Below are positions 15,847 through 60,888 of a stretch of DNA of 64,000 bases, one piece after another. The position numbers and the translations under genes were made by a program. Source of the stretch: a virus (lineage: Duplodnaviria; Heunggongvirae; Uroviricota; Caudoviricetes); IMG/VR virus record IMGVR_UViG_3300021467_000082; one strand, given 5' to 3'. A model generated the notes under the pieces. That model did no database searches, was not told the origin of the DNA, and was given only the letters and a program-made list of their open reading frames with translations. Every line of letters starts with the position of its first letter. Within the stretch, counting starts at the first letter, position 1.

Positions 15847-15854
15847 AGTCTACC

Positions 15855-16628: not shown

Positions 16629-16639
16629 ACTTTGCCTCC

Positions 16640-18259
16640 TTAAATCGAAATAATGGTTCCTAATTTAGAGGACCAGATTAAATTGCCTTCTCTAATTCCA
16701 TCTTCAATATAATTCTTGACGTCATCACTTGTTATCTTTACATCGCTAGTTTCGTTTACAATTTCAGTAACATTTCTTATCCATTCTTCTACATCTGTAC
16801 AATCATCTACTAATCTTAAATCTATAGCCTCATCTATTTTAATTTCCACTTGACTCTCTTTATTTAGTCTCACTTCTAAAGACTTTTCGATATCATCCCA
16901 CTTATCTCCTTCTATACGCCTCAACGCTACTGGCTTGTAAGCCAATTTTTCTAATACATCGTATGCAGGCCCAAGTTTAATTAAGATATTCTTCATTTGA
17001 GCCAACATATCCATAGCCTCTTCTCTAAAATATTCGGCGTGATCTAGCAATTCACTGGTATTACTGAATCTTGGTTCACTATAACTTTTGTGAGCTCCAT
17101 TCAAAATAACGTTTTTCATCTCTTTAGCTTTTGGATCATCCAATACTAATAGGCCATATCTGCTAATTTCTACTGCCTTTATTACAAAGGCGAAATGCAA
17201 ACAGGCCAGTGCCGCGTATATAGATGGACACAGCGTAGCATCTGCTTCCCTAAACTCTATATGAAATATTTCTACATCGCCATCAGGAGAAAAACGGCAA
17301 TTTTTATAATTTACAAAACCGTATTTATTACCGCCAGAATTATTTATAATCTTCTCAGATACTCTATACATCTGGCTTTTAACTGGAGATATATCTAGAA
17401 TGCTAACTCTAAACTTTTCCCATCTTGTCATGTGATTTGGATCTCCTAACGCCATTGTTATCCATGTTAATGCGTTTTGGTACTTCCTAATCAATTGATG
17501 CAAATTTGCCAGTATAATCTCTGGCATAGGCCTTTCCAATTCATTGGTGTTTTCATAGTATGATGCCAAAACATGCATGTGGGCGCCACATCGTTCATTC
17601 ACATATGCACCATGTTTCTTGGCCATATCCAGAATTTTCTTTGACATAGTATAAAATTCCCAATAGTTTACTCTCCTACCTACAGTTATAATCTCTACTC
17701 CACCGTCGTCAACCAAAGACCCATCTTTAGTAATCCGTACAACACCGCTTCCTACTTTACCATATGAACCGCTGGGTTTGAACGCATTTTTAAACTTTTT
17801 CCTCACTTCAGCAGGGGGCAAACTTTTGCGTTGATATTTTTCACATGTTTTACATGCCTTAACAAAATCTTGGCAATTCCAACACCGTGGCGCAAATTCA
17901 TTACAGCCGATTCCTATACATACAAAGCTATAATTTTCACAGTGCTGACAATTCTCAGGCTTACAATCCTCAGATCTGTTACCACACGTTTCTAGCGATG
18001 CAACGTTTCTACAATACGTCGTATTTGCACAGTCACTCCAACATTGCCTATTAGTCATATAATAGCATCCGCACTTTAAATTTCCACCAGCGCATCCATC
18101 TTTACCTTTTGGTAAATTCAACTCGAACTCAATGCCGACTTTCAAGATTCTATACAGTATATCTTTCCAATACCGTATCTCATGGGCATCAAGATGTTTG
18201 TCGATTCTAACATTTTTCTTGTCAGTTATGAATTTCCATTTGTTTCTGTTGTCTCTCAT
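16640..18259 (-). CDS. cysteine-rich protein (about 30 Cys in 110 aa), possibly a divergent amidoligase-like core (GAHMHV)
   Basis: Cys cluster CGCYYMTNRQCWSDC...CKTCEKY; later ERCGAHMHVLAS resembles the HIHIG motif of the paralogs. Confidence 0.4.
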   Translation of the reverse strand: MRDNRNKWKFITDKKNVRIDKHLDAHEIRYWKDILYRILKVGIEFELNLPKGKDGCAGGNLKCGCYYMTNRQCWSDCANTTYCRNVASLETCGNRSEDCKPENCQHCENYSFVCIGIGCNEFAPRCWNCQDFVKACKTCEKYQRKSLPPAEVRKKFKNAFKPSGSYGKVGSGVVRITKDGSLVDDGGVEIITVGRRVNYWEFYTMSKKILDMAKKHGAYVNERCGAHMHVLASYYENTNELERPMPEIILANLHQLIRKYQNALTWITMALGDPNHMTRWEKFRVSILDISPVKSQMYRVSEKIINNSGGNKYGFVNYKNCRFSPDGDVEIFHIEFREADATLCPSIYAALACLHFAFVIKAVEISRYGLLVLDDPKAKEMKNVILNGAHKSYSEPRFSNTSELLDHAEYFREEAMDMLAQMKNILIKLGPAYDVLEKLAYKPVALRRIEGDKWDDIEKSLEVRLNKESQVEIKIDEAIDLRLVDDCTDVEEWIRNVTEIVNETSDVKITSDDVKNYIEDGIREGNLIWSSKLGTIISI

Positions 18260-19418
18260 CGACTAGCCTCCAATTATACTTTAGATTAGCACTAAATTTT
18301 TTCTTACCGGTGACATTCAAAATTGCGTATTTATAATAATTCAAAATAGCTAATTTCTCCTCTTTATATTTCAACATTTTGGTCAAATCATTTACAATAT
18401 TGTTTATCATAGCAACAGCACCGTCTATCTTCTCAGATACTATTGCTTTTTTAACCTCTCCTTTATCTGGAATCGATGGATAAATCATTCTGATATCGTC
18501 ATAGTTGAACTTAAGCTCATTATTAAAATTATCACTGACATACGCTAAACGACTTAACAAATCATTCATCACTATTTTAGATATCGATAAAATTCCATGA
18601 GTATAAATAGGATGTCTTAGTAAATGTCCACCAGGTACTCTATATTCTAATGTCATTTGATCCCACCTATAATCTCCTGGTTTACCATATCTACTAAATC
18701 TTTCTGACCTTCGTACATAATCATCATTACCTTCCGGTAAAATAGCTGATACACCAACATAATAATCTAAAATATCAACTATAAAATCCAACCAATTCAA
18801 TTTTGAAGCACGTAATATTTTCTTTGGCAAACCAAAATGAATATGAAAACCAGCAGACATATTATTACAATGGGATGAACCCAACATAACAATGTCATGT
18901 TTTTTTAATATACCTCTACCAATAATATGGTTATAGACTTTCCTTAATAATACATTTATATGAGCTGTCACTTTTATAGGATTGCTAGACGGCATTGGCC
19001 TCAATTCTGCTAGTCCACAATCATTTCCTATTTCTCCATAATGAGGGAAGAAATGACTAGCTGGAATAGCAAATCCAGTTCTACCATCTACCAAATGAAA
19101 TTCTGGATCACATCCCAACATTACATCGCTAGCAGGAGCGACTGAAATAATTTTATTTCTTCTTAATAAATTATATGTATTACTGCTAACATATGCAACC
19201 TCGCTACCTCTTTCAACATCTTCCTTATACGCAATGCTAACCTGAAGTGCTATAGTATTAATCGCAGTTTTTATATCTAAAAAAAGCCCGGTCATAAGAC
19301 CGAGCTTTTCTCTATATACTTGAGGTATTCTAATTAACCTATCTTCAACTGAACCTAATGGAGATTGTTTTGTATCCATTAAACTCGACGGTCTTATTCT
19401 TAGTTTCATAAGCACCAA
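18222..19418 (-). CDS. amidoligase paralog B
   Basis: GCDPEFHLVD, CGLAELRPMP, GFHIHFGLP. Confidence 0.6.
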   Translation of the reverse strand: MVLMKLRIRPSSLMDTKQSPLGSVEDRLIRIPQVYREKLGLMTGLFLDIKTAINTIALQVSIAYKEDVERGSEVAYVSSNTYNLLRRNKIISVAPASDVMLGCDPEFHLVDGRTGFAIPASHFFPHYGEIGNDCGLAELRPMPSSNPIKVTAHINVLLRKVYNHIIGRGILKKHDIVMLGSSHCNNMSAGFHIHFGLPKKILRASKLNWLDFIVDILDYYVGVSAILPEGNDDYVRRSERFSRYGKPGDYRWDQMTLEYRVPGGHLLRHPIYTHGILSISKIVMNDLLSRLAYVSDNFNNELKFNYDDIRMIYPSIPDKGEVKKAIVSEKIDGAVAMINNIVNDLTKMLKYKEEKLAILNYYKYAILNVTGKKKFSANLKYNWRLVDERQQKQMEIHN

Positions 19419-23368: not shown

Positions 23369-24871
23369 TTAGATTTCTTCACCAGTTCTTGGATCTATAA
23401 TTATATATTTCTCCAATGTCCTATCCATCACCGCAATAGGAGATAAATCCTCTCCGGAGAAAATACTTGCTAGAATTGATGGGCTAAACCCAGACACCAA
23501 AGCTGTTTTCGTCTTATAAGCTAATGCTGGTGAACCAGCATAACCAGCTGTATTCCAATAGACTATCTTTGGAGGAATATAGCCAGCTTCTTCAAATTTC
23601 GCTAAACACCTCTCGACCGGTGTACGCCCTTTTTCAATTCTAACAGGGACGTATGCAGCAGCCGTGAATTGCATATCAGATATTATTAATAGTGTAGTAG
23701 GCATTTGTTCTTGTTTCAAATTGAAAAATTTGGCGACTTTCAATATGGACATTAATGCTTTATCAATTCTAGTAGCTCCAACCGCGCCATCAAAAATCGC
23801 TTCATTTCTCACCGCTTGTGCGAATGTCATGCCTGACCAATCTTTAAACTCACTTTCACTACAGAAAGCTATGAATTTTCTATAAAATGGATTATCTTTG
23901 CCGATTTTATCTGAACAATATAGTGCCATGCCAATGGAAACATGTACCGCTTCTACAGACCCACCAATTATAGATCCCATTGATGCCGACGTATCTGCTA
24001 TGACAATTATCTTTTCATTGGTGCCCTCTAAAAAATTTGGTAACGCTTCAAATTGGGCATTAGCTATTTCATCATCACCGTGCATAACAGTCCTTACACA
24101 ATCATGCGGAAATAGCGCATCAGAATGTACTTTTGCCTCACCCTTTACAAGCGCTTCTTTGTATTTCTCAAATCTTTCAGCATCATGTCTATTAAAAGCG
24201 TTGGTATAACGTGCCATTGCTACAGAAGGCACGGTTTCATAATTTATTTCTTTCCACATGTTATGGCACATTTTGTGCTCAACTATATGGTCCTTTCTTA
24301 TATCGGCCAAGAACCGTCTAAAATTCGCTATTGTCATTCCCAAGGCCTTTCTAAGTGGAGCATACTCTCGTTTTGCCCATTTCGCAGCTAATACCGTTTT
24401 AGATTTCAAAGCGTTGGCCCATAATTCTACCGCAGCCCTTTCTGCTTTTGTATTAAATAATGCTTTAAGATCGTCCCATCTACCAACAACAGGCAACCAT
24501 CCGATATTCGCAGTAATCCATTCTGGTGCATTATCTCCTAACCAGTTATAAATGGACCTGGCTCCGCTGCGATTGCCAGCCCCTCCTCTACAATCGCGTA
24601 GCCACAACAATAGTTTCATTGATGTCACAGGATCTACTACCCATACTTTTTGGAATAATCCCAAAGCAGATTCTTCTTGGCCATAAAAACTTCGTCTGTT
24701 TTCGAATAAAGACCCAGCTTTACTGAAAAATTCTATTGCGTGATCCATACTAAATTCATACTGCAAAGCACCTTCGTTTGTCCTTTTCATATTAAATCCT
24801 CCTTTCAGGCTGATATTTTGGAGGCCAGCTGTTGGTTTGCTGTAATCAGCCTTTCCATAATTATAGCACAA
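23369..24871 (-). CDS. vWA-domain protein with a long N-terminal helical domain; possibly TROVE/Ro60-like
   Basis: C-terminal MIDAS IIVIADTSASMGS with a classic vWA fold; size and architecture (about 300-aa N-domain plus vWA) fit Ro60/Rsr; RNA-repair genes nearby. Confidence 0.55.
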   Translation of the reverse strand: MCYNYGKADYSKPTAGLQNISLKGGFNMKRTNEGALQYEFSMDHAIEFFSKAGSLFENRRSFYGQEESALGLFQKVWVVDPVTSMKLLLWLRDCRGGAGNRSGARSIYNWLGDNAPEWITANIGWLPVVGRWDDLKALFNTKAERAAVELWANALKSKTVLAAKWAKREYAPLRKALGMTIANFRRFLADIRKDHIVEHKMCHNMWKEINYETVPSVAMARYTNAFNRHDAERFEKYKEALVKGEAKVHSDALFPHDCVRTVMHGDDEIANAQFEALPNFLEGTNEKIIVIADTSASMGSIIGGSVEAVHVSIGMALYCSDKIGKDNPFYRKFIAFCSESEFKDWSGMTFAQAVRNEAIFDGAVGATRIDKALMSILKVAKFFNLKQEQMPTTLLIISDMQFTAAAYVPVRIEKGRTPVERCLAKFEEAGYIPPKIVYWNTAGYAGSPALAYKTKTALVSGFSPSILASIFSGEDLSPIAVMDRTLEKYIIIDPRTGEEI

Positions 24872-24895: not shown

Positions 24896-27800
24896 TTAAC
24901 ATCCTATTGCATTTTGTTGATTTGGAACAACCAGTTTATCAATATAATCGGATAACAATCTATACACATCTCTCATTTTCGTCGTTGTTAGAATATCCTT
25001 AACCTTCATCTTCTCGGCTTTGAGCCGCTCTAGCTTGTCTTCTATACTCTCAGTTTGTGTTTGCAGCAATCTTTTCAACATAAAGCTTGGCAGATCAGCT
25101 GCGCTGTCTTGCAGATGATCCAACAATCCAAATGGGCCAAGGCTAGCTCTAGTTGCAAAATAAATTCTATTTCTTTTTCTCACTATGAAGTTAATTATTT
25201 TACTTCCTCCTCTGGCCTTTGCTCTAGCATGAAATTCTTTTAGATTCTGTATACCCAGCTTTGCCGCTTCAGATTTAATCAAATTACACAACAACTCGCT
25301 AGGACGCCTGTCAAATCCCAGACTGACCATGGCATCTACGTCAGCTACACATATTGCATCAGTAGCTTCTTCTTGCAGAGATTTGATTCCATGCTTCTGC
25401 TTAAAAACAGTATTGCCAAGAAAATCCAGCAACAGCTCTAGATGAGCATGTTCTTCAGTTTCAGAATATGGTACATTTCTTTCTACTATTCTCATTAGAT
25501 TATATGCCAACGCAATTACTGGTCCAGTATGACTTTTAACACCAGTTGCTTTTCGTACCAACTCTGCATGTTCTTCATTAGTCGGTTTTGGAAAATAGCA
25601 TATATTGAAATCATCAAACGTCATTTCCTGTATCCTTGGAACTTTCTTACTATTCATTTTATTTATAGCATCAATACATACTTTATTTGGATTATGAAAC
25701 TCCTTTCTCAAAGCTTCTCTTGCCTCTGCAGTATGAAACGATGCCAAGAACAAAGTATCTCCATCAAAATCTAAACTTAAACTTACCAGACTATTTCCAC
25801 TTACTCGAATAACATATCTACACAGTGGATCATCGGTTATTTGCACTTTCTGGGGCCTAATAGACATAAATCCCAAGCAGGGAAATCTTTCTACCAATAC
25901 AATATCCCCAGTCTTCACGTTCAATTGCTGCGCCATATCTCTATGAATCTCAATCGTATTTGGCGGTAGATTATCAGCCAGCGCAGCTACTCCATGCGCA
26001 GAATAAGGATACCTTATAGCCATTCCATATGTGCTCAATTCTCCTCTCTTTGTTCCCATGCTCCTGGCAACTACCCTAAAATACTGCGAAACAGCCCTCA
26101 TAAGTTCATTTTGATTGATTATACTTTTGTCCTCTACAAATTCATGGGTTAGTTGAACAATCCTATTTACCAAAATTCCTACTTGGCTTAGTCCCCACTT
26201 TCCAGATGGATGCCGCCAGCATCTGCGCAGTAGAGCATTTGGAATAAATATTTGATTATATCGATAGACATCATATGTATTTGTATCAACATCATCATCT
26301 GGCAATCCCATAGAAAAATCTTCTTTATCCTGTTTATTAACAACAGCTTGAAAATAACAAGGCAGCCGCATTATAAACCCATCAGCAAAAAATTCTTCAT
26401 CTACAATTGTTCCTTTTATTTCATCAATTGTATGAAGAAAACCTCGGCGCAAATCAACGAATCTAATATCTTCAGCATCAATAATTGGATAGTTAGTGTC
26501 TACTTCTCCTTTAGCAGAATGTAGAATCCTAATTTCGTCTTTAATAATTTCTACTCCTTGTGCATGAGACATTACTTCTTTTATTATAGGGTTGCCAGGA
26601 CCGAACCTAGTTACTAGCGCTTTAATTTCAACATGACTAAATTTCAACCCAGAAGTTCGCAGCTCTCTATTATTCGTAATCCATGCCTTCTTATCGTCCC
26701 ATATTTGATCTTCTGGATCTTTGGTTACGCCCCAAAACATCTTACCTACAACTGCCTGGAATTCTCCACAATATGTTCTAATCATCCAAGAACCATCTTC
26801 TGGAAATCCCTTGGCTTTTAACGCAGCCTTAATTTTACCTTTAGTAACTATATATTCATCGTCTATAACTATTGGATCATCGCCTTCATTCAGATTATTA
26901 GCGAGCATTTCCAATAGTTGGCCAAAATTCTTTCTTTTATTAATAGACGTTCCAGATATGATAACATCGATAGGCACTTCCTCACCGGTTTTTGGATTAA
27001 TGGCTACACCAAGATCCATAAACTTAACAATGCCTTTATTTGCGTGCAGATTGGAAAATTTACTACCGTCTTTCAAAAACCTCTTTCCTTCAACAGTGAT
27101 AATCGTTGCTTTAATTGGCATATTATCCAATTCAACCACAACTCCATTAATGGTCAAGATTTTACCCTCATCACAGCGAAGATCCATTATAACTGGCTTG
27201 CCATCCGGAGAGAAACCTAACTTATCTCCGAATCTTATATTGTCGCCTTCCTCAACTAGGATCTTATCGCCATATATTGTAAACTTCTTATTTACTGTAT
27301 GCGATAGACTCAATAGTCGTTTATCAACCAAAATCTGATCTTCAAAAGTCAAAGGCGTATCCAAAATTGCAGTCGTAAGATTCCAACCCCTTCTTTCAAA
27401 CCCCTTGTCTATAAGTTTCTGCATACTCTTGGTTCTTATCCTAGGCAGCTCATCGCCTTGCATACACAGAGTGGAATATAGATTTCTTTGTGGATTGTGG
27501 AACATTCCAAATGGGGTTATCCTCCGCATATCTAGATCCAGCAGATAATTCTTATCAGCTAATACACCGTCGCTTAAGCCTATTGCAGTCCAGCCAAACT
27601 TTTGATAATATTTTCTATTTTTTTCTACTTGATACTCCAGCCTTTTATTTGGATCTTGAAGTCTATTAAATTCAGGATCTATTATGATGATCCTATGATT
27701 CATGGCCCATGTATTCATGTCAGTTTCATGAATTGGCATTGTATTTACTATTTCATCTATCAATCTCTGAGTACTCATTACCATATAACTGACTTGATTA

Positions 27801-28174
27801 TTCTTGAAGGACCTTGCAATTTTCGCTACCATTGGGGTTCCACTTTCAATATGTGGAAAGATTACATTTACATCGTCCAATAGTAGTTTTTCAATAACTT
27901 GCAAATAAGACAATTCTTCTTGCTTCTCTTCTAGCCAATACCTAGATACTGCTCTCTTAATCCCATTTCTAATTATGAATACCAGGCCATTTTCTATTAC
28001 AGGGAGTGGTATTTCCAAAGCTTTGCTTATTTCTGCATTTTCAAATATAAACCATAAACTATGCTCTACAATTTTAGTTTTTATGTTAGCCGTTACTTTT
28101 GCAAAAGTTTTGTTTCTGTTAAACTCATTCTTCACCCTTTCGGCCAAGATTATGGCCTCATCCATCGGCTCCAT
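24896..28174 (-). CDS. multisubunit RNA polymerase subunit: beta C-terminal half fused to beta-prime N-terminal half
   Basis: Beta motifs SKFSNLHANKGIV (GNKGV), SINKRKNFGQLLE (PSRMNxGQ-like), HVEIKALVTRFG (GEMEVWAL-like), followed by the beta-prime catalytic SLDFDGDTLF (NADFDGD). Confidence 0.8.
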   Translation of the reverse strand: MEPMDEAIILAERVKNEFNRNKTFAKVTANIKTKIVEHSLWFIFENAEISKALEIPLPVIENGLVFIIRNGIKRAVSRYWLEEKQEELSYLQVIEKLLLDDVNVIFPHIESGTPMVAKIARSFKNNQVSYMVMSTQRLIDEIVNTMPIHETDMNTWAMNHRIIIIDPEFNRLQDPNKRLEYQVEKNRKYYQKFGWTAIGLSDGVLADKNYLLDLDMRRITPFGMFHNPQRNLYSTLCMQGDELPRIRTKSMQKLIDKGFERRGWNLTTAILDTPLTFEDQILVDKRLLSLSHTVNKKFTIYGDKILVEEGDNIRFGDKLGFSPDGKPVIMDLRCDEGKILTINGVVVELDNMPIKATIITVEGKRFLKDGSKFSNLHANKGIVKFMDLGVAINPKTGEEVPIDVIISGTSINKRKNFGQLLEMLANNLNEGDDPIVIDDEYIVTKGKIKAALKAKGFPEDGSWMIRTYCGEFQAVVGKMFWGVTKDPEDQIWDDKKAWITNNRELRTSGLKFSHVEIKALVTRFGPGNPIIKEVMSHAQGVEIIKDEIRILHSAKGEVDTNYPIIDAEDIRFVDLRRGFLHTIDEIKGTIVDEEFFADGFIMRLPCYFQAVVNKQDKEDFSMGLPDDDVDTNTYDVYRYNQIFIPNALLRRCWRHPSGKWGLSQVGILVNRIVQLTHEFVEDKSIINQNELMRAVSQYFRVVARSMGTKRGELSTYGMAIRYPYSAHGVAALADNLPPNTIEIHRDMAQQLNVKTGDIVLVERFPCLGFMSIRPQKVQITDDPLCRYVIRVSGNSLVSLSLDFDGDTLFLASFHTAEAREALRKEFHNPNKVCIDAINKMNSKKVPRIQEMTFDDFNICYFPKPTNEEHAELVRKATGVKSHTGPVIALAYNLMRIVERNVPYSETEEHAHLELLLDFLGNTVFKQKHGIKSLQEEATDAICVADVDAMVSLGFDRRPSELLCNLIKSEAAKLGIQNLKEFHARAKARGGSKIINFIVRKRNRIYFATRASLGPFGLLDHLQDSAADLPSFMLKRLLQTQTESIEDKLERLKAEKMKVKDILTTTKMRDVYRLLSDYIDKLVVPNQQNAIGC

Positions 28175-30553: not shown

Positions 30554-31019
30554 ACACCTTTTTGCAATCTATAGGAATTGTGGTAGCAGTAATTTGAATG
30601 CTAGGAGTTAGCGGCGCTCCTAATATAATCGCAAAATCATCTATCGCAAAATCGTCTCCAATCATATTTTCTATTTCCTCTGTTAACTCTTCTACAGTGT
30701 CATACGGTGTGCAATCTACCGTGTTTCCGAACCCTTCACTAAGTAAATATAGGCCCATTTTGCTGAACTTAAACGGTATCTCATATGGTAATTCCTTAGG
30801 ATCTAAAACTAGGCCATAAAAAATAGATGTTGGATCATCTAAAGAGAAAATAAGATTATCAAATTCACTTTGAGGCATTTTCCTAAGTTCGCCATTAATT
30901 TCCGCTTTTGTAGTGGATGCTATAAATAAGCCTGGCGTGCTAACTACATAGACATTAGTTCCAATATAATCTTTGAATTGACTTATAGATCTAATAAGAG
31001 CCATAACTCGCCTCCACAA
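30531..31019 (-). CDS. hypothetical protein
   Basis: ORF track, 162 aa. Confidence 0.45.
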   Translation of the reverse strand: MWRRVMALIRSISQFKDYIGTNVYVVSTPGLFIASTTKAEINGELRKMPQSEFDNLIFSLDDPTSIFYGLVLDPKELPYEIPFKFSKMGLYLLSEGFGNTVDCTPYDTVEELTEEIENMIGDDFAIDDFAIILGAPLTPSIQITATTIPIDCKKVYGEEEDG

Positions 31020-31539
31020 TATCTTTATTATATGTAAGGAATATATTTAATAAAAATTTGAACGCTGGCGAATATTTGTTTGGATTATCAGCGATATCTT
31101 CTATAAGTTCGCCTAACGGTAGAATTATAATACCATCAAGCTCTTCCTCATTGATTGTAATGACTTCCTTGGTCGGATCTAGCAAGTACGAATATAATTT
31201 TACAAACTCGTTATTAGTTACACCACAAGCACTGACATATGCTATTTCCTCAAGCTCCTCTGATTCAACATCCAGCCCAAGCTCTTCCTTTGTTTCCCTA
31301 ATAGCTGCTTCGAGATATGACTCGCCGTATCTTACGTGACCTGATACTGACGAGCTCAATAACCCACCATTCTCTGTGTGTTTGGCTTTTTGTTGAACAA
31401 TAAAATATCCGCCAAACACCTCTATGAAAACATGGACAGCCCTATGGAAAAATCCGTTCTCATGTAAATAATCTTTCCCATATACTATACGTAAGGGAAC
31501 ATCATGTTCATCAACTACCCAAAAAATTTCGTCATGCAT
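30991..31539 (-). CDS. Nudix hydrolase
   Basis: Nudix box GHVRYGESYLEAAIRETKEELGL. Confidence 0.8.
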   Translation of the reverse strand: MHDEIFWVVDEHDVPLRIVYGKDYLHENGFFHRAVHVFIEVFGGYFIVQQKAKHTENGGLLSSSVSGHVRYGESYLEAAIRETKEELGLDVESEELEEIAYVSACGVTNNEFVKLYSYLLDPTKEVITINEEELDGIIILPLGELIEDIADNPNKYSPAFKFLLNIFLTYNKDIVEASYGSY

Positions 31540-31990
31540 TTTGTGCCCCCAGAACCTTGCTGTTATATAATATTCTTTCTATAATCCTATGCTGCTGAGT
31601 TGTCGACAATTCACTACCTATCAATACTGCAAAATTCTCAATATCTTCGTTAAGACTTTGCATTTGCTCTTCTATATATCCTACACAACCATCCATTGTT
31701 TCAAAATCTGCAAAATCATAATCATCTGCGATTACGTAAGCCACTTCGTCCATATCTAAATCATATGGCAACTCTTCAGCTTTGTAGGCATATCCTCTTA
31801 ATAACATGGTTTTTGTAAGACTTAAGCGAGACTGAAGGTTATGACTCCGTACATATTTTATAATGTTTAAGATAGTAGTAGACGCTACATACTCGATTAT
31901 TGAGTCAGTTACGTCAAATAGCAAGAAATAGACTTCTTCGCCTTCAAACTCTCGCAAGGCGTGCACAGTGGTAGCAACCTTATCTTTCAT
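31532..31990 (-). CDS. hypothetical protein
   Basis: ORF track, 152 aa. Confidence 0.45.
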   Translation of the reverse strand: MKDKVATTVHALREFEGEEVYFLLFDVTDSIIEYVASTTILNIIKYVRSHNLQSRLSLTKTMLLRGYAYKAEELPYDLDMDEVAYVIADDYDFADFETMDGCVGYIEEQMQSLNEDIENFAVLIGSELSTTQQHRIIERILYNSKVLGAQNA

Positions 31991-32747
31991 CGTTTCCCCC
32001 TACTAATTCTACATCTTCAGCATAATCTACTCTTTCATGGTAATTACTAGCAACATCTGCTATAATTGCTTCTTGAATAGATTTTAAGTTACCCAATACC
32101 ACAGTTACATTGTCAAATTGACCATCTAAATGCAGTTTATTATAAATATTAGACACTATGGCTCGTGGATCATGCTTTGCTTTGGAATCTCTATATATAG
32201 CTCTAGAAGCAGCTTCTACTTGATCACAAAACATTAGAATTAAAGATTCCAAAGTATTCGGACGTTGAGTCTTATATCTAAACTCATCTATTCGATCAAT
32301 CTCCACTTTTTCAGCTATTGACTTCAACACACATGTACCATGATGCTGGCTGGCTATTTTAATTACCTCCATAGGAAAATCGTTTGCTACCAAAATTGCT
32401 ACCGTATCAGATACATGTCTTGTTATTAATTGGTAGCTAATTTCCGGTGTTAACTCATCATGTATGTTTTTGCCTTCTCTTTGATTTTCAGTAAATATTT
32501 CCGGGTTCCACATTTTACCTATGTCATGATACATCGCCGCTATCTTTAATGTCTCCGATTCCATTCCAACACTAGCACAAACATTCTCTATCATTCCTAC
32601 TAATGATTGTGCATGCTTATAGCTGCCTGGCGCTTTCTCTCTGAATTCTTTTAGCAGCGGAAAGTTAGAATCCAAATAACCTAATTCTTTTTCTTCTTTC
32701 TTCACTGCTTCTTTGGTTTCCTCAATCAACTCGACATTCTCCGACAT
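31980..32747 (-). CDS. HD/HDIG-domain phosphohydrolase
   Basis: H...AAMYHDIGK...D motif arrangement. Confidence 0.7.
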   Translation of the reverse strand: MSENVELIEETKEAVKKEEKELGYLDSNFPLLKEFREKAPGSYKHAQSLVGMIENVCASVGMESETLKIAAMYHDIGKMWNPEIFTENQREGKNIHDELTPEISYQLITRHVSDTVAILVANDFPMEVIKIASQHHGTCVLKSIAEKVEIDRIDEFRYKTQRPNTLESLILMFCDQVEAASRAIYRDSKAKHDPRAIVSNIYNKLHLDGQFDNVTVVLGNLKSIQEAIIADVASNYHERVDYAEDVELVGGNDER

Positions 32748-33457
32748 TTGCTGCCTCCAATTTTATCCTTATATAAGGTAACGAATTTTTCAAAATCATA
32801 TTTCAGAAAATCTCTCATTATGCATTGATAAGCAACTACACCAGGATCTGTTATTCTCATTATTTCGGGATGAAATTGTACGCCAAAACCATTAATATTG
32901 GTAAAGATAGCGCCTTCAACTTCTTGCACATCATCATCTACCTGTCTACAGTTCTCATCGAAATAAAGCCGGGCAATGCTTGGCTCAGTCCAAATTAATG
33001 GTATTGCTTTATTATTTACCTTTACCAACTGATGGTGTGTGCTAGATACCAAGTATTGACTCTTAAACGGTGCAAAGTACGCATTGTGATATGGAGGATG
33101 CCTCGCTATATGTTGATACATCTTACCACCAGCCATCACATTGATAAATTGGAATCCTCGGCAAATGCCACTTACTTTAACACTATGTTTTAGACATACA
33201 TCGAAGATTTCTTGTTCAAGGCGGTCTCGTTTATGGTTAACATAACTCATACCGTCAATCTTCCCGCCATAGAATCCTGGAGATACATCTTCTCCACCAG
33301 TAAACAATACCATATCTATATCTGTATAGTGCATTTCGATAATATCTGTTATCCGTTTAGCGTCATGTATGATATCCTCAGTAGAGTACAATATTCTAAC
33401 AAAACCTTGAATTGGAAATGAATAGACTGAAGGCCCTACCACTACGATGTTATGCAT
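32726..33457 (-). CDS. class-I glutamine amidotransferase-like protein (peptidase C26/gamma-glutamyl hydrolase-like)
   Basis: Nucleophile elbow GICRGFQ and VQFHPE (His-Glu of the triad). Confidence 0.7.
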   Translation of the reverse strand: MHNIVVVGPSVYSFPIQGFVRILYSTEDIIHDAKRITDIIEMHYTDIDMVLFTGGEDVSPGFYGGKIDGMSYVNHKRDRLEQEIFDVCLKHSVKVSGICRGFQFINVMAGGKMYQHIARHPPYHNAYFAPFKSQYLVSSTHHQLVKVNNKAIPLIWTEPSIARLYFDENCRQVDDDVQEVEGAIFTNINGFGVQFHPEIMRITDPGVVAYQCIMRDFLKYDFEKFVTLYKDKIGGSKCRRMSS

Positions 33458-34382
33458 TTGCAGCCCCCTTTTTCGCTTTTTTACTCTCCTTTTTCTTATC
33501 CCTTGGAATGATAAATTTGTATTTACCCTTATTCGTATTATACAGCTCTAAATAACAATCCATTTCCTTTTTTGTCTCTGCATTTACCAAGTTTTTTAAC
33601 TCACCTGTAAACAATTCTTTAAGTGTTACTTCAGTCTTTACAGAATCTATTTGACTACAAATTTCGTTTATAGCCGACATGCATGTGAATTTACCTTCAT
33701 AAACGTCGGTTTTATCATATTTATGGAAATCGCTTACAAATAATTTCAACGCTATAGGAACTGCTAATGGGAGCACACAATTATACAAGTCCTTATGTGT
33801 ACGAGTACGTTCTCCATAATATCTCGTAACATTTATTATGTGATGGACAGTATTGTCTACGGTCAATCTTGATGCCGCTACAAAAGCACTATAAAACGGT
33901 AGCCCTACGTCGTAAAATGTTAATATAGTCCGCACGAACGTAGGCCATTCGACCAAATATCTTATAGCTGATACATAGACATACAATTGATTTTTTGTAT
34001 AATTGTCAAACTTTATTATAACATATGGATGTTGAGCACCAAATTTAATTGATACGTCTTCTCCTATTAATTTAAATTTTTTACATAGCTTTAACCACTT
34101 CTTAATTTCTGCAGCCGTTAAATAATGTAATTGCTGCAAATTAATATCAGTTAAGCAATAAGCTAAAGCGTTATATGCTTTTGGTATACCATATCTAATC
34201 TTCGAAAAACAAACTTCTCCTGACAAAGATTGTTTCTTTTTAAGATTTTCAACATAGTTTAATGTGATATACTTTGTTGCTTTATTAGTGCGAAATAAGT
34301 GATATTTTACATCATAAGGCCGTACTCTTTCTGCTAAGTCCAATATGAATTGATTGTCAAATTGTGGTAATACTAAATTCAT
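33450..34382 (-). CDS. hypothetical protein
   Basis: ORF track, 310 aa. Confidence 0.5.
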   Translation of the reverse strand: MNLVLPQFDNQFILDLAERVRPYDVKYHLFRTNKATKYITLNYVENLKKKQSLSGEVCFSKIRYGIPKAYNALAYCLTDINLQQLHYLTAAEIKKWLKLCKKFKLIGEDVSIKFGAQHPYVIIKFDNYTKNQLYVYVSAIRYLVEWPTFVRTILTFYDVGLPFYSAFVAASRLTVDNTVHHIINVTRYYGERTRTHKDLYNCVLPLAVPIALKLFVSDFHKYDKTDVYEGKFTCMSAINEICSQIDSVKTEVTLKELFTGELKNLVNAETKKEMDCYLELYNTNKGKYKFIIPRDKKKESKKAKKGAANA

Positions 34383-34396
34383 TGTTCCCTCCTCAA

Positions 34397-35677
34397 TTAA
34401 CCTAGTGATCTAACAAGCGATTCCTCATAACGCAAAGCTTTCTTAACACCAAGCAATCGCGTCAAACGTCTCCTTGTACCAGATAGAAAACTATTGCTAT
34501 TTCCCCAATTGTAATAGTACGTAGATCTATTACCATGTAATGCCCATTCTTCATACATATTGCTGCTTATAAGTTCATCTGTTCCATTCATTATGAGATA
34601 ATCAAAAAGAGTTATTGGATTTAAACCGACATAATCATCTGAATACACATGAGGTTTTCTAGAATAGTTAGAATACAAAAAATTTGTCGATTTACTAAGA
34701 GAACCTATCAATGCTCTGACCGAACGCCAAACTTTCTTAGCATATACAACGTCTGATTCATTTATTGCGCCCCTTACATCTTCTTCACTTATATTAATAG
34801 TTTGCAATAATTTTTCATAACCGTACTTCCTATACGCAAAAGCCGTCCCTAAGCTGGCCAGGCCTAACACCATAGAGACAAAAATTGGAGATTTAAGCCA
34901 CCAACAGCTTAGACTACGATATTCAATTCCATATGGCGTAGGCCTAAAACACCCGGCTTTGCCATACTTGGATCTTCGCCTTTTAGCGGCTGGCGAATTA
35001 TCAAATGGTAACGTCAATAAATTAACGAAGAAATCCAGAGACTTAACCCATCTAATATGCTCTTTTTCACTTGTGATCATCTCACGTTGCCTAGAATAGT
35101 AGGGATCAGCGAGTCCGCCACCATATTCAATACCTACTAAACCTATATGAATGTGGCCTCCCGCGTATCTATATGGATGTTTTTCCGCGTTCATCTCTGG
35201 CGTATTCACAGTGAGCGTATAGGCATTGTAATCTGGCATACACCCAAAGATCTTTGCGTCGTCATGGGCTTGATCCAATATTCGCTTTTGTACTTTAACA
35301 GACGGCTTTAGCGTAATTCTATTTCCTTCTATCATATCAGCAGCTGTAGTTAAAATACGTTTTGTTCTCATGATAAAGTACACTCTACAATAAGTCGGCG
35401 TGATCCCAAATTCAGCTTGAATGCCATCAAAATATAATTTACCAATCGCCTCTCCTACACCTAACCACCTGTCATCAGGTTCTTGCTTTATAATAAGTGG
35501 TTTAGTTTTATGGGGAAAAAATTTATCTGAGTTTAGAATTGTGCCTTTCTTATTTGCTACGAAAAACTCAGGGTCCGCCCCAAAATAGAGAGTCGGTTTT
35601 AGCCCACAGCTTAATTTTCTTTTCATACCGGTTGTTATTTCAGACAACTTAATCCGCTTCATCACTGGACCTCCCAT
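34397..35677 (-). CDS. amidoligase paralog C
   Basis: GADPEFFVAN, GGHIHIGLVG. Confidence 0.6.
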   Translation of the reverse strand: MGGPVMKRIKLSEITTGMKRKLSCGLKPTLYFGADPEFFVANKKGTILNSDKFFPHKTKPLIIKQEPDDRWLGVGEAIGKLYFDGIQAEFGITPTYCRVYFIMRTKRILTTAADMIEGNRITLKPSVKVQKRILDQAHDDAKIFGCMPDYNAYTLTVNTPEMNAEKHPYRYAGGHIHIGLVGIEYGGGLADPYYSRQREMITSEKEHIRWVKSLDFFVNLLTLPFDNSPAAKRRRSKYGKAGCFRPTPYGIEYRSLSCWWLKSPIFVSMVLGLASLGTAFAYRKYGYEKLLQTINISEEDVRGAINESDVVYAKKVWRSVRALIGSLSKSTNFLYSNYSRKPHVYSDDYVGLNPITLFDYLIMNGTDELISSNMYEEWALHGNRSTYYYNWGNSNSFLSGTRRRLTRLLGVKKALRYEESLVRSLG

Positions 35678-36395
35678 TTATATATAAGTATTTTTCCACA
35701 ATCCCTCTGTACTTTTCTGTTGTAAAATCAGCTTCGTAATCAACGGCAAAATATGACACGTCATTAATGTTTAACTCTTTATATATGAATGTACCATTTT
35801 TATAAACAGCATCTAACTCATGCCAATCTATTCCTCTCTCTTGCAACATATTAAGCATATCAGAGACCTTTTTATTTTGGAGTTCTTTTTGAGAGAAAAC
35901 AGACCTGGCTAACATATGAACAGAATTTCTTATCCAGTCTTTTTGCCGCCATATAAAATAATTACAGACCTCCTCTTTTGGAATGTTAAACGCACGGCAA
36001 TCGAATACTGCATAATTAATTTCAAACATTTGTGATAGCCACCTAGAAAAGTTTACAGACATCATAGCAGCGGCAACAGATACGAGTTTTTGTAGGTTAT
36101 AATCGAACCAAGCTGAAGTGTTCAATTGATCGAAATCTGTCAGTAGAATTGACACTTCATCTGATTGAATATAGGCACATTTCGCACCTTGTATTTCCTC
36201 ACATACGTTTCCAGCAGCATAAACCATTCCCTTTATAAATGTTTCATCAAAAGGTTTCTGCATACACTTACATAATGTGTGGAAAGCTTTTCCATCTAAT
36301 CGTAAAATAACTGGAGTTCTACGAGTCAGTTTTACTCTGTATCTGCTCTCGTAGTTTTCTTTCATCCTATCTCCAATAGACGTTCTATTCTTCAT
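35649..36395 (-). CDS. Thg1-like protein (tRNA-His guanylyltransferase/3'-5' polymerase family)
   Basis: ILRLDGKAFH and IQSDEVSILL match Thg1 VVRLDGRNFH / GQSDEYSFVF; 29-nt overlap with the upstream amidoligase. Confidence 0.75.
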   Translation of the reverse strand: MKNRTSIGDRMKENYESRYRVKLTRRTPVILRLDGKAFHTLCKCMQKPFDETFIKGMVYAAGNVCEEIQGAKCAYIQSDEVSILLTDFDQLNTSAWFDYNLQKLVSVAAAMMSVNFSRWLSQMFEINYAVFDCRAFNIPKEEVCNYFIWRQKDWIRNSVHMLARSVFSQKELQNKKVSDMLNMLQERGIDWHELDAVYKNGTFIYKELNINDVSYFAVDYEADFTTEKYRGIVEKYLYINGRSSDEAD

Positions 36396-36480
36396 TTTTC
36401 TCTCCTATTTTTCAAGGACCGCTATGTTTACTATTAGATCTTAAGCCTTTATAAGATTTTTATTCTTCATAGCACCCTCC

Positions 36481-37200
36481 TCAATTAATATTTATATTTC
36501 TCTCTAATTGTTGTAGATTATAATATCTTATCAAGATATTAGTAACATATCTTAGTTCATAACTTTTACCTTTTGGCTTTGTCAATCCGGTGTGATACCT
36601 ATTAAGAGCCACAACTATATTTCCTTTTGCCTCTTTAATATACTTACTTAATATTTTCACACCGCATTTTATATTATTATCTATCCAAAACAATTTATTT
36701 TTCACGCTTACTCCATTATCTTTCAAAATAGGATGTTCTTTCCACGTAGAAAATCTTACCTGCATCAAACCTACAGCTCCAGCTTTGCTTTGTACCAACG
36801 GCCTAAAGTTCGATTCTTCATAAATTAGGGAGACCACTAATAGTGGATCAACATTTTGCTCTTCACATACTTCCAATATAGTCTTTGCTATCAGTTTACG
36901 TAGAGGTTCAGATAATTTGGGCTGTAAATGTTCAATTATACCACTTAATTGATCCACACTGATATCGCATTTATTATCATTAACCTCTATAACCTTAACA
37001 GGTTGCACAGATTGCTTCGAGCTCAAACATTCCTGCAATTTGTCATTTAACTCTTCGTTGATATTAGTAAGTTGTTGGACAGTTTTACTATATTTTGTAA
37101 TATTTGTTACAGCAGTATACCATGCAAAACCTTGTGCAATAATTAAAACTAAAACAAAAGCGACTAATATATACTTATACAATTTTGACATTTTTATCAC
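36481..37200 (-). CDS. lytic transglycosylase (SLT domain) with an N-terminal membrane anchor
   Basis: LLVVSLIYEESNFRPLVQSKAGAVGLMQV (ES...AxGLMQ) plus an N-terminal TM helix. Confidence 0.8.
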   Translation of the reverse strand: MIKMSKLYKYILVAFVLVLIIAQGFAWYTAVTNITKYSKTVQQLTNINEELNDKLQECLSSKQSVQPVKVIEVNDNKCDISVDQLSGIIEHLQPKLSEPLRKLIAKTILEVCEEQNVDPLLVVSLIYEESNFRPLVQSKAGAVGLMQVRFSTWKEHPILKDNGVSVKNKLFWIDNNIKCGVKILSKYIKEAKGNIVVALNRYHTGLTKPKGKSYELRYVTNILIRYYNLQQLERNININ

Positions 37201-37205
37201 CTTTA

Positions 37206-37451
37206 TTATGGATCTACTCTCTCCACTACCTTATCTATGAAATTTTGTAATGCTCGTGTAGCGTGAATAGAATCCACTACTATATTCTTTTTAGTGGAAA
37301 ATAGAGGTACTTTCGTTTTCTTGTTATATTTTACTGCAACCACTTTGTTTTCATCAGAGTCATGTTTAAATACTGCAACGATATCATTGTCAGATATTGA
37401 AAGAGCCTCAAAATCAAAACGTGATAGATCAACAGTGTTAATGGTTTCCAT
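37206..37451 (-). CDS. hypothetical small protein
   Basis: ORF track, 81 aa. Confidence 0.4.
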   Translation of the reverse strand: METINTVDLSRFDFEALSISDNDIVAVFKHDSDENKVVAVKYNKKTKVPLFSTKKNIVVDSIHATRALQNFIDKVVERVDP

Positions 37452-38829
37452 TTTGTTCCTCCTTTTCCAATTCGTTATAAGCTTGTAGTATTAAGTCATG
37501 GAGTTGACTTTTGTAATCAGAAATAGATTCATCCATTATTTTATCAGCAACCATTCTTTTTATTTTACCAACTAGAGGAGATGGTTTGATATTGCATAAT
37601 TTCATTATCAAATTACCATCTATTAAATCGACCAACGGTCTGTTATATGCTAATTGTTTCTGCCTTTCAATAATCTCATTTATTTTTTCTAATTTTCGAT
37701 CAAAGCTACCATAATGCATGAATTCTTCGCCTCGCGAAAACTCATCTGCCCACGCCACCTCTACTAATGTATCAAAGTATGGACTTTCTGCTATTCTTGC
37801 TATTTTAGATGGGCGCATATTTAATATATGATTGAACTTCATGTGATTTCTTACGGCGAATAATATACGATCTTTTTCCATATTTGAGAATTTTAATCGA
37901 GTTAATATATGCTCGGCTATATCTGTACCTGCCACCTCATGTCTATAATAGTGAACACCCTTCTCATCTTCGCTAAAGGTAACCCCTTTACCAATATCAT
38001 GAAGCAATATTGCCATCAGCGTAGTGAAATCATTTGTTCTAGCTATCTCCAAGCACTTTATAACATGATCAAATACCGTTGTTCCTTCTGGATGATGTCT
38101 CATATTATGTTTGTAGTATTTTAAAATAGACACTTCAGGAATGATTTTGGACAATAGACCAAAATAATCGCTCAATTTAATAAAATTAGTAAATTCTTTT
38201 ACTCCATATTTGCTGGCCTTATAAAACTCTCCCCTAATTCTTTCCGGGGCTATTTTAATTATCTTACTATTATATCTCCTTATGGCCATTCTAGTTTTAT
38301 TTTCGATGTTGAATCCAAGCGCTGCAAACCTTATTGCTCTAAGCATTCTTAAATAATCTTCTGAGAATCTCTCTGACGGATCTCCTACCGTTCTTAGTAT
38401 CTTATTTTCAAGATCTTCCTTACCACCGACCTTATCTATAATATTGCCATGTTTATCCATAGCCATGGCATTTATAGTGAAGTCCCGACGCATAATATCT
38501 TCATCTAACGATACGCCTATCTTAACAGACTCTGGCCTCCTCCCATCCAGATATTTTCCATCAGATCTAAACTGTGCGATTTCAAAATACATGTCTTTAT
38601 AACATATTAAGCATATGCCAAAATCTTTTGATTGGCCTATATTATAAGTATCGAAAATCTCTTCCAAAATTTTGAGCGGGCAATTTGTAGTGATATCAAC
38701 GTCTTCAGCTCTGCGCCCGCTCAAAATATCCCTTACAGTGCCGCCTACTATATACGCTTCATATCCTAATGCTTCTATTTCACTTAGCAGCTTCATAGCT
38801 ACAAGTACATTTTTAGACAACATTGCCAT
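37438..38829 (-). CDS. cca: CCA-adding enzyme (tRNA nucleotidyltransferase, class II with HD domain)
   Basis: Head IVGGTVRDILSG...EDVDITT, neck RLRAIRFAA, HD motif LLHDIGK. Confidence 0.85.
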   Translation of the reverse strand: MAMLSKNVLVAMKLLSEIEALGYEAYIVGGTVRDILSGRRAEDVDITTNCPLKILEEIFDTYNIGQSKDFGICLICYKDMYFEIAQFRSDGKYLDGRRPESVKIGVSLDEDIMRRDFTINAMAMDKHGNIIDKVGGKEDLENKILRTVGDPSERFSEDYLRMLRAIRFAALGFNIENKTRMAIRRYNSKIIKIAPERIRGEFYKASKYGVKEFTNFIKLSDYFGLLSKIIPEVSILKYYKHNMRHHPEGTTVFDHVIKCLEIARTNDFTTLMAILLHDIGKGVTFSEDEKGVHYYRHEVAGTDIAEHILTRLKFSNMEKDRILFAVRNHMKFNHILNMRPSKIARIAESPYFDTLVEVAWADEFSRGEEFMHYGSFDRKLEKINEIIERQKQLAYNRPLVDLIDGNLIMKLCNIKPSPLVGKIKRMVADKIMDESISDYKSQLHDLILQAYNELEKEEQNGNH

Positions 38830-40196: not shown

Positions 40197-40919
40197 TCAT
40201 AGCTTCCTCATTTTTTTCTTCTTTATTAATTCTACCAATACATCGCCATGGCAGGGCAAAGGTTTACAATAACAACCAAGCCTCTTTCCTTCTAATTCAT
40301 CTAATGCGGCCAACAAATCAGGTCTAGTTAACACGTAATTTCTGTATTTTTCTATTACCTCTTCACGTGTCCCATCTATACCAATTCTAAATGGGTTTCC
40401 CCATTTGCTTCCCCTTCCAATATAGACATCGTAGGGTTCATGTTTGAGGTTGACTACCCTTGTCTTTGGTTTGTATTCTGGTATTATAGTATTTACTTTG
40501 GTTATTTTATCATTTACGACAAGAATTATTATGATTGGAATATTATATTTTTTGATGGCAAGATCTATCATATGCTTTGTACCTGTGGATTTACCATCCC
40601 ATATGGCAACTACTACGTCTTTTTGTGTCAACATTTTAATCATTTCTTCGTTTCGTTTCATACCGGCTAAGGCGTTATATTCTTTGCCAAATCTATTGCA
40701 CTTTCTCACAACTGGAGGACTCACGTCCTCCCACCTTGCCTGCACCTCAAACAATTTAACCTCATTAGCCAATGCCCACTTTCGGGCCAGCGAATCAACT
40801 CCGCCGGCCCCACCTTCAATTACTGCTGTGGCTGTACTTGAAAACTTGTCAAGTATCTGCTTGACTATATCATAGTTAGTAATACTCCTACTTCCAGATA
40901 CTAATATCTTCATTTTCAT
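40197..40919 (-). CDS. two-domain protein: N-terminal SLOG/DUF2493-like (VSGSRS...EGGAGGVDSLA) plus C-terminal DUF4326-like (GSKWGNPF...CYCKP.PCHGDVL); paralog of 50951-51670
   Basis: Shared architecture and motifs between the two ORFs. Confidence 0.5.
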   Translation of the reverse strand: MKMKILVSGSRSITNYDIVKQILDKFSSTATAVIEGGAGGVDSLARKWALANEVKLFEVQARWEDVSPPVVRKCNRFGKEYNALAGMKRNEEMIKMLTQKDVVVAIWDGKSTGTKHMIDLAIKKYNIPIIIILVVNDKITKVNTIIPEYKPKTRVVNLKHEPYDVYIGRGSKWGNPFRIGIDGTREEVIEKYRNYVLTRPDLLAALDELEGKRLGCYCKPLPCHGDVLVELIKKKKMRKL

Positions 40920-42106: not shown

Positions 42107-42499
42107 CTATGTATTTGCTACGGCCTCACGCACCTTCCAATCTTTGATTACTGGGTATAGCCTTGATACTCGGTCGAAATAAACATCATTCATTACATAT
42201 ATCAAAACTTTTTTACCATCAATTTTTATGTATTTACGTTTGTAGTACCCATACTGCACGCCTTCCAATTGATCCAAGAGTTTTAACAGCTCTTTTTCAT
42301 TACCTTTAAAATCCAAGAGTTCAACGACAATTTCATCGTTTTCATCTCCCGTTTCAAAGGCTGCTGGATAGTCGCCCAGATCGAACATTTTGAAGCCTCT
42401 TAGAGTTTTTATTTTTCTACTCGTAATTTTTCCAAACTCTTTAAAAGCACCTGCTCTACTTTCTCCTTCTCTTAACGTACCATATACAGCAATACGCAT
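42107..42499 (-). CDS. gamma-glutamyl cyclotransferase-like (AIG2/GGCT fold) protein
   Basis: N-terminal IAVYGTLREGE (YGTL..G motif) and size about 130 aa. Confidence 0.6.
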   Translation of the reverse strand: MRIAVYGTLREGESRAGAFKEFGKITSRKIKTLRGFKMFDLGDYPAAFETGDENDEIVVELLDFKGNEKELLKLLDQLEGVQYGYYKRKYIKIDGKKVLIYVMNDVYFDRVSRLYPVIKDWKVREAVANT

Positions 42500-46997: not shown

Positions 46998-47237
46998 TTA
47001 CAGCTCGCTCCCCTTTTTCCTACCTAATACACAGCCAAATCCATCCTGTATGTACAATTTATCCAACCATATCAGTTTAGAATTATCAAGCTGTAGAACC
47101 TTCAATAATCTCTCACAATGGCCTCCCATCTGAGGGCCTTCATCAGGATCTACAGCCTTATGCCACTTCCCGCGTTCGAAATATTTACACTCTTTACACT
47201 TAATCATTGACCACCTCCTCCTTTTTGTAACCATCAT
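46998..47237 (-). CDS. small zinc-finger protein
   Basis: CKECKYF...GGHCERLL. Confidence 0.35.
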   Translation of the reverse strand: MMVTKRRRWSMIKCKECKYFERGKWHKAVDPDEGPQMGGHCERLLKVLQLDNSKLIWLDKLYIQDGFGCVLGRKKGSEL

Positions 47238-58652: not shown

Positions 58653-58742
58653 TTGGAACCTCCTTTTAATGTAATGTTTGTTTATGGTTGAAATGCTTTT
58701 CTTTTGGCTACAATGTTTGTTGTAGCACGCCTAAACTCCTCA

Positions 58743-60037: not shown

Positions 60038-60055
60038 CTTGTACCTCCTCTGTTT

Positions 60056-60817: not shown

Positions 60818-60888
60818 TTGTCTGTGGCGTACCTATTCATTTGGTAGGTAGCCACAGACGTAGATCTTCACCGGGACGCTGACCCTTC

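Follow-up and report, generated by a model that had tools for sequence, protein, structure and literature searches.

A predicted tRNA-repair gene of the Thg1 family and a phage ligase-partner-C26 submodule are probably unrelated neighbors

Does the overlap of two genes in a densely packed phage genome mean that their products work together? The question arises from a stretch of 64,000 nt (IMG/VR record IMGVR_UViG_3300021467_000082), here called the window, in which a gene encoding a Thg1-like protein runs into a gene encoding a COOH-NH2 ligase, or amidoligase. This ligase, referred to as ligase C, is followed by an open reading frame (ORF) of 310 amino acids and by a gene for a protein of the Peptidase_C26 family, which has the fold of class-I glutamine amidotransferases (GATases) and is referred to as C26. 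The original prediction took the tight coupling of the first two genes as a hint that the amidoligase chemistry might act on tRNA. That hint did not survive comparison with related phages, in which the adjacency is not conserved and Thg1 is found elsewhere, the arrangement in the window having arisen by insertion. The evidence instead favors what had been offered as the fallback, two unrelated pathways that are merely neighbors. On balance we consider it probable that the Thg1-like gene has no connection with the submodule formed by ligase C, the 310-aa partner, and C26, and that this submodule carries out gamma-glutamyl-type amide ligation and hydrolysis on a target other than tRNA.

The four ORFs lie where they had originally been placed, all on the minus strand, and carry the motifs first ascribed to them. 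Profile searches and alignments upheld the families proposed for them, namely, a Thg1-like protein, an amidoligase paralog, and a C26-like class-I GATase; the Thg1 assignment passed its profile searches, and the motifs are conserved in homologs. Speaking of a second submodule was likewise accurate: amidoligase paralogs A (11733-13049) and B (18222-19418) exist in a separate module of the window.

The Thg1-like protein matched PF04446 with 100.5 bits against a cut-off of 29.2 (E = 8.8e-29, profile positions 3-130 of 130) and PHROG 4717 at 1e-80, and it contains both RLDGKAFH and QSDEVS. Its closest solved relative is the bacterial Thg1-like protein (TLP) of Bacillus thuringiensis, 4KGK (phmmer E = 3e-54, 236 residues), whose RIDGAHFH and QSDEIS segments align with D33 of RLDGKAFH and with D79/E80 of QSDEVS. 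These residues are presumably the metal-binding carboxylates, the equivalents of D29, D76, and E77 of human Thg1. The match to human THG1 was far weaker than that to the bacterial TLP (2e-7 versus 3e-54), and the region aligned with the eukaryotic CHINNLYN reads WIRNSVHML, the HINNLYN-type segment being missing. Judged by its sequence, the gene is of the TLP subtype and is not a eukaryotic Thg1 that adds G-1 to tRNA-His. TLPs repair 5'-truncated tRNAs, and the product is predicted to be a 3'-5' nucleotidyl transferase for tRNA 5'-end repair. Just upstream of the gene are encoded RtcB, a CCA-adding enzyme, and a YAcAr-DUF4326 protein, and we regard the Thg1-like gene as a sporadic accessory part of this phage RNA-repair toolkit. 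Thg1 has been described as occurring sporadically in the RNA-repair sets of jumbo phages, which also include RtcB and CCA-adding enzymes (PMC7824862).

The overlap between the Thg1-like gene and ligase C is real, but it measures 14 nt and not the 29 nt first reported. The difference lies in the ligase start. The second ATG of the ligase ORF, at 35662, is the most likely start because a GGGAGG Shine-Dalgarno sequence stands 7 nt upstream of it and because public gene calls give a protein of 421 aa (P0001), compared with 426 aa for the longest ORF. Overlaps of this kind are the norm in the window, real yet not distinctive. Its genes form a dense array, nearly all on the minus strand, with ~35% GC and three tRNA genes; 29 of the 77 same-strand junctions in the window overlap when longest ORFs are considered, as do 22 of 37 in the array from 6141 to 41693. 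Scans for promoter patterns (57 versus 51.9 ± 8.1) and terminator patterns (3 versus 5.1 ± 2.3) gave numbers at the level of shuffled sequence, and we make no claim on transcription units.

The origin of the overlap became apparent from seven independent metagenomic relatives of ligase C, which are 37 to 61% identical to it (L008/L009 and L015 at 61%; L010, on a 270-kb contig, L012, L013, and L014 at 37 to 41%). In L008/L009, L010, and L015, the ligase gene is immediately preceded by one for an SLT lytic transglycosylase, and in L013 a 129-aa ORF intervenes; SLT is the probable ancestral upstream neighbor of ligase C. In L015, the SLT ORF ends in ...RNEAD across the ligase start (ATGAGGCGGATTAA), which gives a 14-nt overlap. 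The SLT ORF of the window terminates early, in ...LERNININ, and is followed by a short spacer with a 9-codon mini-ORF and then by Thg1, whose C terminus, ...YINGRSSDEAD, reads through ancestral SLT-tail sequence (ATGAAGCGGATTAA). The C-terminal end of other Thg1 homologs is ...EKYLYEVEQ. At the DNA level, homology with the SLT genes of the relatives breaks off near 36505 and picks up again inside the ligase, and homology with other Thg1 genes is limited to 35682-36384 (82% over 703 nt to L018). On the basis of these homology limits and of the readthrough into the SLT tail, we infer an insertion: the comparison shows that a Thg1-bearing segment of ~825 bp was evidently placed exactly at a pre-existing SLT/ligase overlap. 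The Thg1 ORF ends in the former SLT tail and therefore inherits the 14-nt overlap with the ligase. The "translational coupling" of the two genes is thus inherited and did not evolve for Thg1. The same history is visible in the protein, which resembles 4KGK in its metal-binding carboxylate motifs and differs from it in a C-terminal tail of ~10 residues, INGRSSDEAD, that comes from the former SLT 3' end.

The mini-ORF (36441-36470, minus strand) encodes MKNKNLIKA and has its own GAGGAGG Shine-Dalgarno sequence just past the SLT stop codon. Its first 14 nt equal the Thg1 start at 13 positions (ATGAAGAATA.AA), and it may be a scar of an insertion or recombination event.

Conservation of the adjacency was assessed in two sets of loci. 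Among the seven relatives, none has Thg1 beside the ligase; this arrangement occurs solely in the window phage and in near-identical contigs. The 270-kb contig carries a 61%-identical Thg1 ~26 kb away from its ligase, directly after RtcB and before RNase H. The closest Thg1 of all (80% amino acid and 82% nucleotide identity), from the same metagenome as L009, adjoins a DNA methyltransferase gene, and a homolog of window gene 46998-47237 lies 1.5 kb from it. A 71%-identical Thg1 has a radical-SAM gene as its neighbor and RtcB at a distance of 2.4 kb. The second set consisted of 80 diverse IMG/VR loci encoding a relative of the COOH-NH2 ligase, in which genes were counted within 6 kb of the ligase, and there Thg1, RtcB, and CCA-adding genes each scored 0 of 80. 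A functional link between ligase C and Thg1 is not supported by these observations.

What is conserved lies on the other side of the ligase. Ligase C matched PF14395 with 48.2 bits (cut-off 25, E = 1e-12), over profile positions 108-220 of 254 only, and PHROG 3815 at 6e-42 over residues 30-318. It contains both GADPEF and GGHIHIG and is a predicted ATP-dependent carboxylate-amine ligase of the GCS2/glutamine-synthetase-like superfamily. A metagenome protein collection yielded 157 full-length homologs, and a search of PDB sequences gave no usable relative. D79, E84, GGHxHxG, R229, R230, Y233, G234, R240, and E247-Y-R249 are invariant, and GxDPEFF is nearly so. The elements GxDPEF, D...E, GGHxHxG, R...YG...R, and EYR also showed little or no variation in sets of 16 and 33 sequences that included paralogs A and B. 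Relative to those paralogs, ligase C is longer by an insert of ~45 aa, in which FGCxPDxNAYT is conserved, and by an extension of ~100 aa at the C terminus. With these two features, a length of ~420 aa, and four invariant cysteines, it represents a distinct subfamily. The cysteines, C92, C141, C238, and C253, are invariant in 33 orthologs. The subfamily-specific insert and an AGCFRPTPYG motif account for two of them, and the insert bearing C141 is missing from paralogs A and B. Their role could be in a metal site or a disulfide.

The C26 protein matched PF07722 with 76.2 bits (cut-off 20.5, E = 4e-21) and PF00117 with 23.4 bits (cut-off 22.8, E = 5e-5), and both GICRGFQ and VQFHPE were found in it. 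Its relatives in the PDB are Lin1909 (3FIJ), a "probable glutamine amidotransferase" from P. aeruginosa (7D4R), and PuuD (6VTV). Alignment with 3FIJ and 7D4R indicated that the Cys-His-Glu triad is retained, as C99 in GICRG and H196/E198 in QFHPE; the residue aligned with H196 is the His of 7D4R that is replaced by Asn in the variant 7D53. C99, H196, E198, FTGGxD, and SxHHQ are invariant in 12 C26 orthologs and homologs. None of the NCBIfam equivalogs for PuuD, gamma-glutamyl-CDP-amidate hydrolase, and GuaA was reached at its cut-off (24.8 versus 266 for PuuD; 35.5 versus 250 and 25.3 versus 198 for other matches), and the protein is best described as a member of the family and not as any one of its named enzymes. 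Two named relatives, PuuD and gamma-glutamyl-CDP-amidate hydrolase, are hydrolases of gamma-glutamyl-X compounds. C26 thus resembles a gamma-glutamyl-amide hydrolase, with a glutaminase as the alternative.

The 310-aa ORF, which the original prediction had treated as filler, turned out to be a conserved partner of the C26 gene. It had no match in Pfam, PHROG, or NCBIfam, a PDB sequence search returned nothing usable, and no similarity to known synthase subunits was found. It belongs, nonetheless, to a family that comprises 280 representative clusters when grouped at 50% identity. Of the 65 IMG/VR loci with a C26 gene, 57 have an ORF that abuts or overlaps this gene on its 5' side, with a length of 236 to 403 aa in 52 of those. 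Profile-profile comparison relates the main cluster of these C26-abutting ORFs to the 310-aa family (96.4% probability, E = 1e-9, 161 columns), whereas the ligase family, used as a control, gave 0.1%. TC6_056 falls in this cluster, as does a 494-aa protein of phage IME234 with its C-terminal half. One Cys and an R-x3-E are the invariant residues common to the partner family, and the structure model, although confident, resembles no known fold. A distant homolog, P0260, has neither ligase nor C26 in view on its short contig of 3.6 kb. The unannotated partner family 5' of C26, with members in cultured Pseudomonas and Vibrio phages, is what is new here.

Gene order supports the grouping of the three proteins. 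In the relatives, the ligase is followed by an optional ORF of ~105 aa, a homolog of the 310-aa protein (in six of seven), C26, an HD-domain gene, a gene of unknown function, and a NUDIX gene, and the block continues toward a fused RNA polymerase gene. In the 80 IMG/VR loci, a C26-type gene was present in 65, an ATP-grasp gene in 47, and a class-II GATase gene in 39. The cultured phages TC6 and vB_ValP_IME234 have C26 inside a GATase-II/ligase/ATP-grasp module. Ligase C, the ~300-aa partner, and C26 are therefore a conserved three-gene submodule of the phiEco32-type amidoligase system. Searches of IMG/VR with single proteins from the window returned solely distant ligase loci, and no match for the 310-aa ORF; among GenBank phages, no DNA nearly identical to the region was found.

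Table 1. Features of the window discussed in the text
Feature	Position	Strand	Basis or content
Thg1-like protein (bacterial-type TLP)	35649-36395	-	PF04446, PHROG 4717
SLT lytic transglycosylase	36481-37200	-	PF01464 at 9e-16
Inserted segment, ~825 bp	35681-36507 (approximate boundaries)	-	New SLT tail, mini-ORF, Thg1 gene
COOH-NH2 ligase type 2, paralog C	34397-35662 (longest ORF to 35677)	-	PF14395, PHROG 3815
310-aa protein, unannotated family, 5' partner of C26 gene	33450-34382	-	Conserved position
Peptidase_C26/class-I GATase-fold protein	32726-33457	-	PF07722, PF00117
PgpH-type HD phosphodiesterase	31980-32747	-	4S1B (Listeria Lmo1466) at 5e-40
152-aa unknown	Between HD and NUDIX genes	-	
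NUDIX protein	30991-31539	-	PF00293
First amidoligase module	10158-19418	-	GNAT, ATP-grasp, ligase A, two class-II GATases, two unknowns, ligase B
GGACT/AIG2-like gamma-glutamylamine cyclotransferase	42107-42499	-	PF06094 at 5e-14

The amidoligase/GATase systems of phiEco32-like phages were reportedly predicted by Iyer, Abhiman, Burroughs, and Aravind in 2009. The window system shares with them the ligase family, above the Pfam threshold, and its linkage to a C26-type class-I GATase. A class-II GATase, an ATP-grasp protein, and a GNAT protein are likewise encoded elsewhere in the same genome, and C26 is preceded on its 5' side by the conserved ~300-aa partner, as it is in TC6 (TC6_056/TC6_055). 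The window system differs in being spread over two modules with three ligase paralogs, in having the order ligase-partner-C26 instead of partner-C26-GATaseII-ligase, in the distinct ~420-aa subfamily to which its ligase C belongs, and in its setting in an uncultured jumbo-phage clade beside SLT, HD, and NUDIX genes. The cassette is accordingly a rearranged variant of a known phage system, with the partner of C26 as a modest new insight.

Among better-known systems, PuuA/PuuD and the gamma-glutamyl-polyamine pathway of Pseudomonas likewise pair a ligase of the GS/GCS superfamily with a Peptidase_C26, and C26 aligns with PuuD and with P. aeruginosa 7D4R with the catalytic Cys and the His/Glu kept. 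In contrast to PuuA, however, ligase C is GCS2/PF14395-like and not a PuuA-type glutamine synthetase, and the cassette has an additional, obligate partner. MurT/GatD also combines an ATP-dependent ligase with a small protein of the class-I GATase fold, and in the window the neighboring SLT gene codes for a cell-wall enzyme. The ligase folds (Mur ligase versus GS/GCS-like) and the GATase subfamilies differ, and this likeness is one of analogy only. PafA/Dop, a Pup ligase and a depupylase with a GS-like fold, are also to be counted among the closest known systems.

Formation and removal of a gamma-glutamyl amide are suggested because a GS/GCS ligase is paired with C26 and because a gamma-glutamylamine cyclotransferase (GGACT) is encoded nearby. 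Ligase C would activate a carboxylate with ATP, most plausibly the gamma-carboxyl of glutamate, and would join it to an amine carried either by a small molecule or by a peptide or cell-envelope precursor. C26 and its obligate 5' partner could later hydrolyze the gamma-glutamyl-type amide, and the GGACT enzyme might provide a second route for gamma-glutamyl removal. Such a write-and-remove logic would resemble that of PuuA/PuuD. Proposals published for phage amidoligase systems are cell-wall modification, metabolite synthesis, and protein tagging. Action on tRNA has no comparative support.

Several points weigh against the reading of Thg1 and the submodule as unrelated neighbors with gamma-glutamyl chemistry in the latter. 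The insertion can equally be read as loss of Thg1 in every other lineage, although this is the less parsimonious reading, given that Thg1 is found at other loci there. A CCA-adding enzyme is encoded upstream of the ligase block in four lineages (L008/L009, L013, L014, and L015), as is RtcB in L014 and L015, and some room is formally left for a link to RNA metabolism by synteny. As to the chemistry, the papers searched offered only predictions for phage PF14395 ligases (cell wall, metabolite, or protein tag) and no experiments, sequence does not tell a gamma-glutamyl hydrolase from a glutaminase subunit, and the role of the partner is guessed, its fold being unrecognizable.

In the main rival reading, partner and C26 would together be a two-subunit glutamine amidotransferase, C26 acting as the glutaminase and the partner as acceptor or channel, that delivers NH3 to the acyl-phosphate made by ligase C, for example on a peptidoglycan precursor, as in MurT/GatD. 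We consider this unlikely, if deserving of attention. The close spacing of partner and C26, which abut or overlap in 57 of 65 loci with partner lengths of ~240 to 400 aa in 52, is typical of glutaminase/synthase pairs, and C26 has the full class-I GATase triad with weak matches to PF00117 and GuaA. SLT, a peptidoglycan hydrolase, is the conserved upstream neighbor, and a cell-wall role has been proposed for phiEco32-type systems (cited in PMC10580990). C26 nevertheless scores far higher on Peptidase_C26 than on GATase, the first module already holds two class-II GATases, the partner is without similarity to known synthase subunits, and SLT is missing from all 80 of the classical IMG/VR loci.

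A bolder proposal, for which we would claim only a low probability, is that the partner is a new enzyme or acceptor subunit obligate with C26. The trio would then make a novel gamma-glutamyl or amide metabolite, or modify a macromolecule (cell envelope, protein, or nucleic acid), in a manner needed early in infection and in many phage lineages.

DNA hypermodification is a weaker rival and, in our judgment, quite improbable. The cassette would here place an amino acid or amide on a modified base or nucleotide of the phage DNA, with HD and NUDIX processing nucleotides. Some viral contigs do combine amidoligase and amidotransferase Pfam domains with genes for thymidine hypermodification (PMC8989533), and HD and NUDIX genes follow the cassette in the clade of the window. 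However, no 5-hydroxymethyluracil (5-hmU) DNA kinase, aGPT-Pplase, dUMP hydroxymethylase, or TET/JBP was found among the ~50 ORFs scanned in the window, which is part of a genome. In addition, the HD protein is a homolog of PgpH-type cyclic-dinucleotide phosphodiesterases and not a dNTPase, and neither HD nor NUDIX genes were found in any of the 80 classical ligase loci.

That ligase C and Thg1 form a functional unit, the amidoligase adding an amino acid or amide to a tRNA or RNA that Thg1 repairs or prepares, is most improbable, comparative genomics having already refuted it for the most part. The stop and start codons do overlap on the same strand, and the block does lie downstream of RtcB, the CCA-adding enzyme, and YAcAr-DUF4326, with a CCA-adding gene preceding the ligase block in four lineages, but the adjacency is missing in seven of seven relatives, Thg1 stands at two other loci in related phages, the overlap was inherited from the SLT/ligase junction in a window where overlaps are ordinary, the 80 viral ligase loci lack all three repair genes, and the amino-acid-bearing modifications of tRNA described so far (t6A, lysidine, agmatidine, glutamyl-queuosine, and acp3U) are made by enzymes of other folds.

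Of the genes that flank the submodule, HD and NUDIX lie downstream of C26 in all seven relatives. A functional link of the two to the cassette was considered and set aside as clade-specific synteny, given their absence from the classical loci; the association is probably one of synteny and not of function. The HD protein is a soluble homolog of the HD domain of PgpH, a c-di-AMP phosphodiesterase, and at 57 to 86% identity it is the best-conserved gene product of the block. It could be a phage enzyme that degrades cyclic nucleotides in host takeover or counter-defense. The GGACT gene is also found upstream in L006, L008, L014, and L015, ahead of the RNA-repair block in several relatives, and its product may share the gamma-glutamyl chemistry of the amidoligase modules.

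A polypeptide of 1,092 aa encoded elsewhere in the window (24896-28174, minus strand) contains a beta-type barrel (Rpb2_6) followed by a beta'-type barrel (Rpb1_2, DFDGD) and, from these domains, is a compact fused two-barrel RNA polymerase. A tblastn search of 50,697 GenBank phage records gave no match to it, and it is 59 to 84% identical in metagenomic relatives, one of them on the 270-kb contig; the phage therefore looks like a member of an uncultured jumbo-phage clade. Directly downstream of the polymerase gene is one for a 500-aa protein with DUF2828 and DUF7788 (23369-24871, minus strand). Immediately downstream of the first amidoligase module come the genes (7474-9349, minus strand) of a sigma-70-like factor, with regions 2 and 4, and of a RuvB-like AAA+ protein.

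Among the genes related to RNA repair, two paralogous YAcAr (SLOG)-DUF4326 fusions are present (40197-40919 and 50951-51670, minus strand), one directly upstream of RtcB. There are also two genes of the CCA-adding/poly(A) polymerase family with HD (37438-38829 and 6141-7511, minus strand), the head domain of the second being far more divergent. RtcB is in pieces in L014 (1645-3631) and L016 (2758-5991), and a LAGLIDADG-type ORF lies between the pieces in L016, which suggests interruption by an intein or a homing endonuclease. A ligase gene that has been split or frameshifted may underlie two overlapping ORFs, 2457-2999 and 2920-3531 (minus strand); in the first, the match to the adenylation domain of ATP-dependent DNA/RNA ligases is confined to the C-terminal half of that domain. 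From 58000 to 64000, GC rises from ~0.30-0.38 to 0.43-0.45 and gene spacing becomes looser, and the rise over these last 6 kb may mark a module boundary.

The overlap of Thg1 and ligase C as a relic of insertion is a caution against inferring function from overlapping genes in dense phage genomes, and a new amino-acid chemistry on tRNA need no longer be considered. What the locus adds to the widespread phage amidoligase systems is a distinct ligase subfamily in a compact three-gene cassette, and the conserved partner of C26, present in cultured phages, offers a tractable handle for biochemistry.

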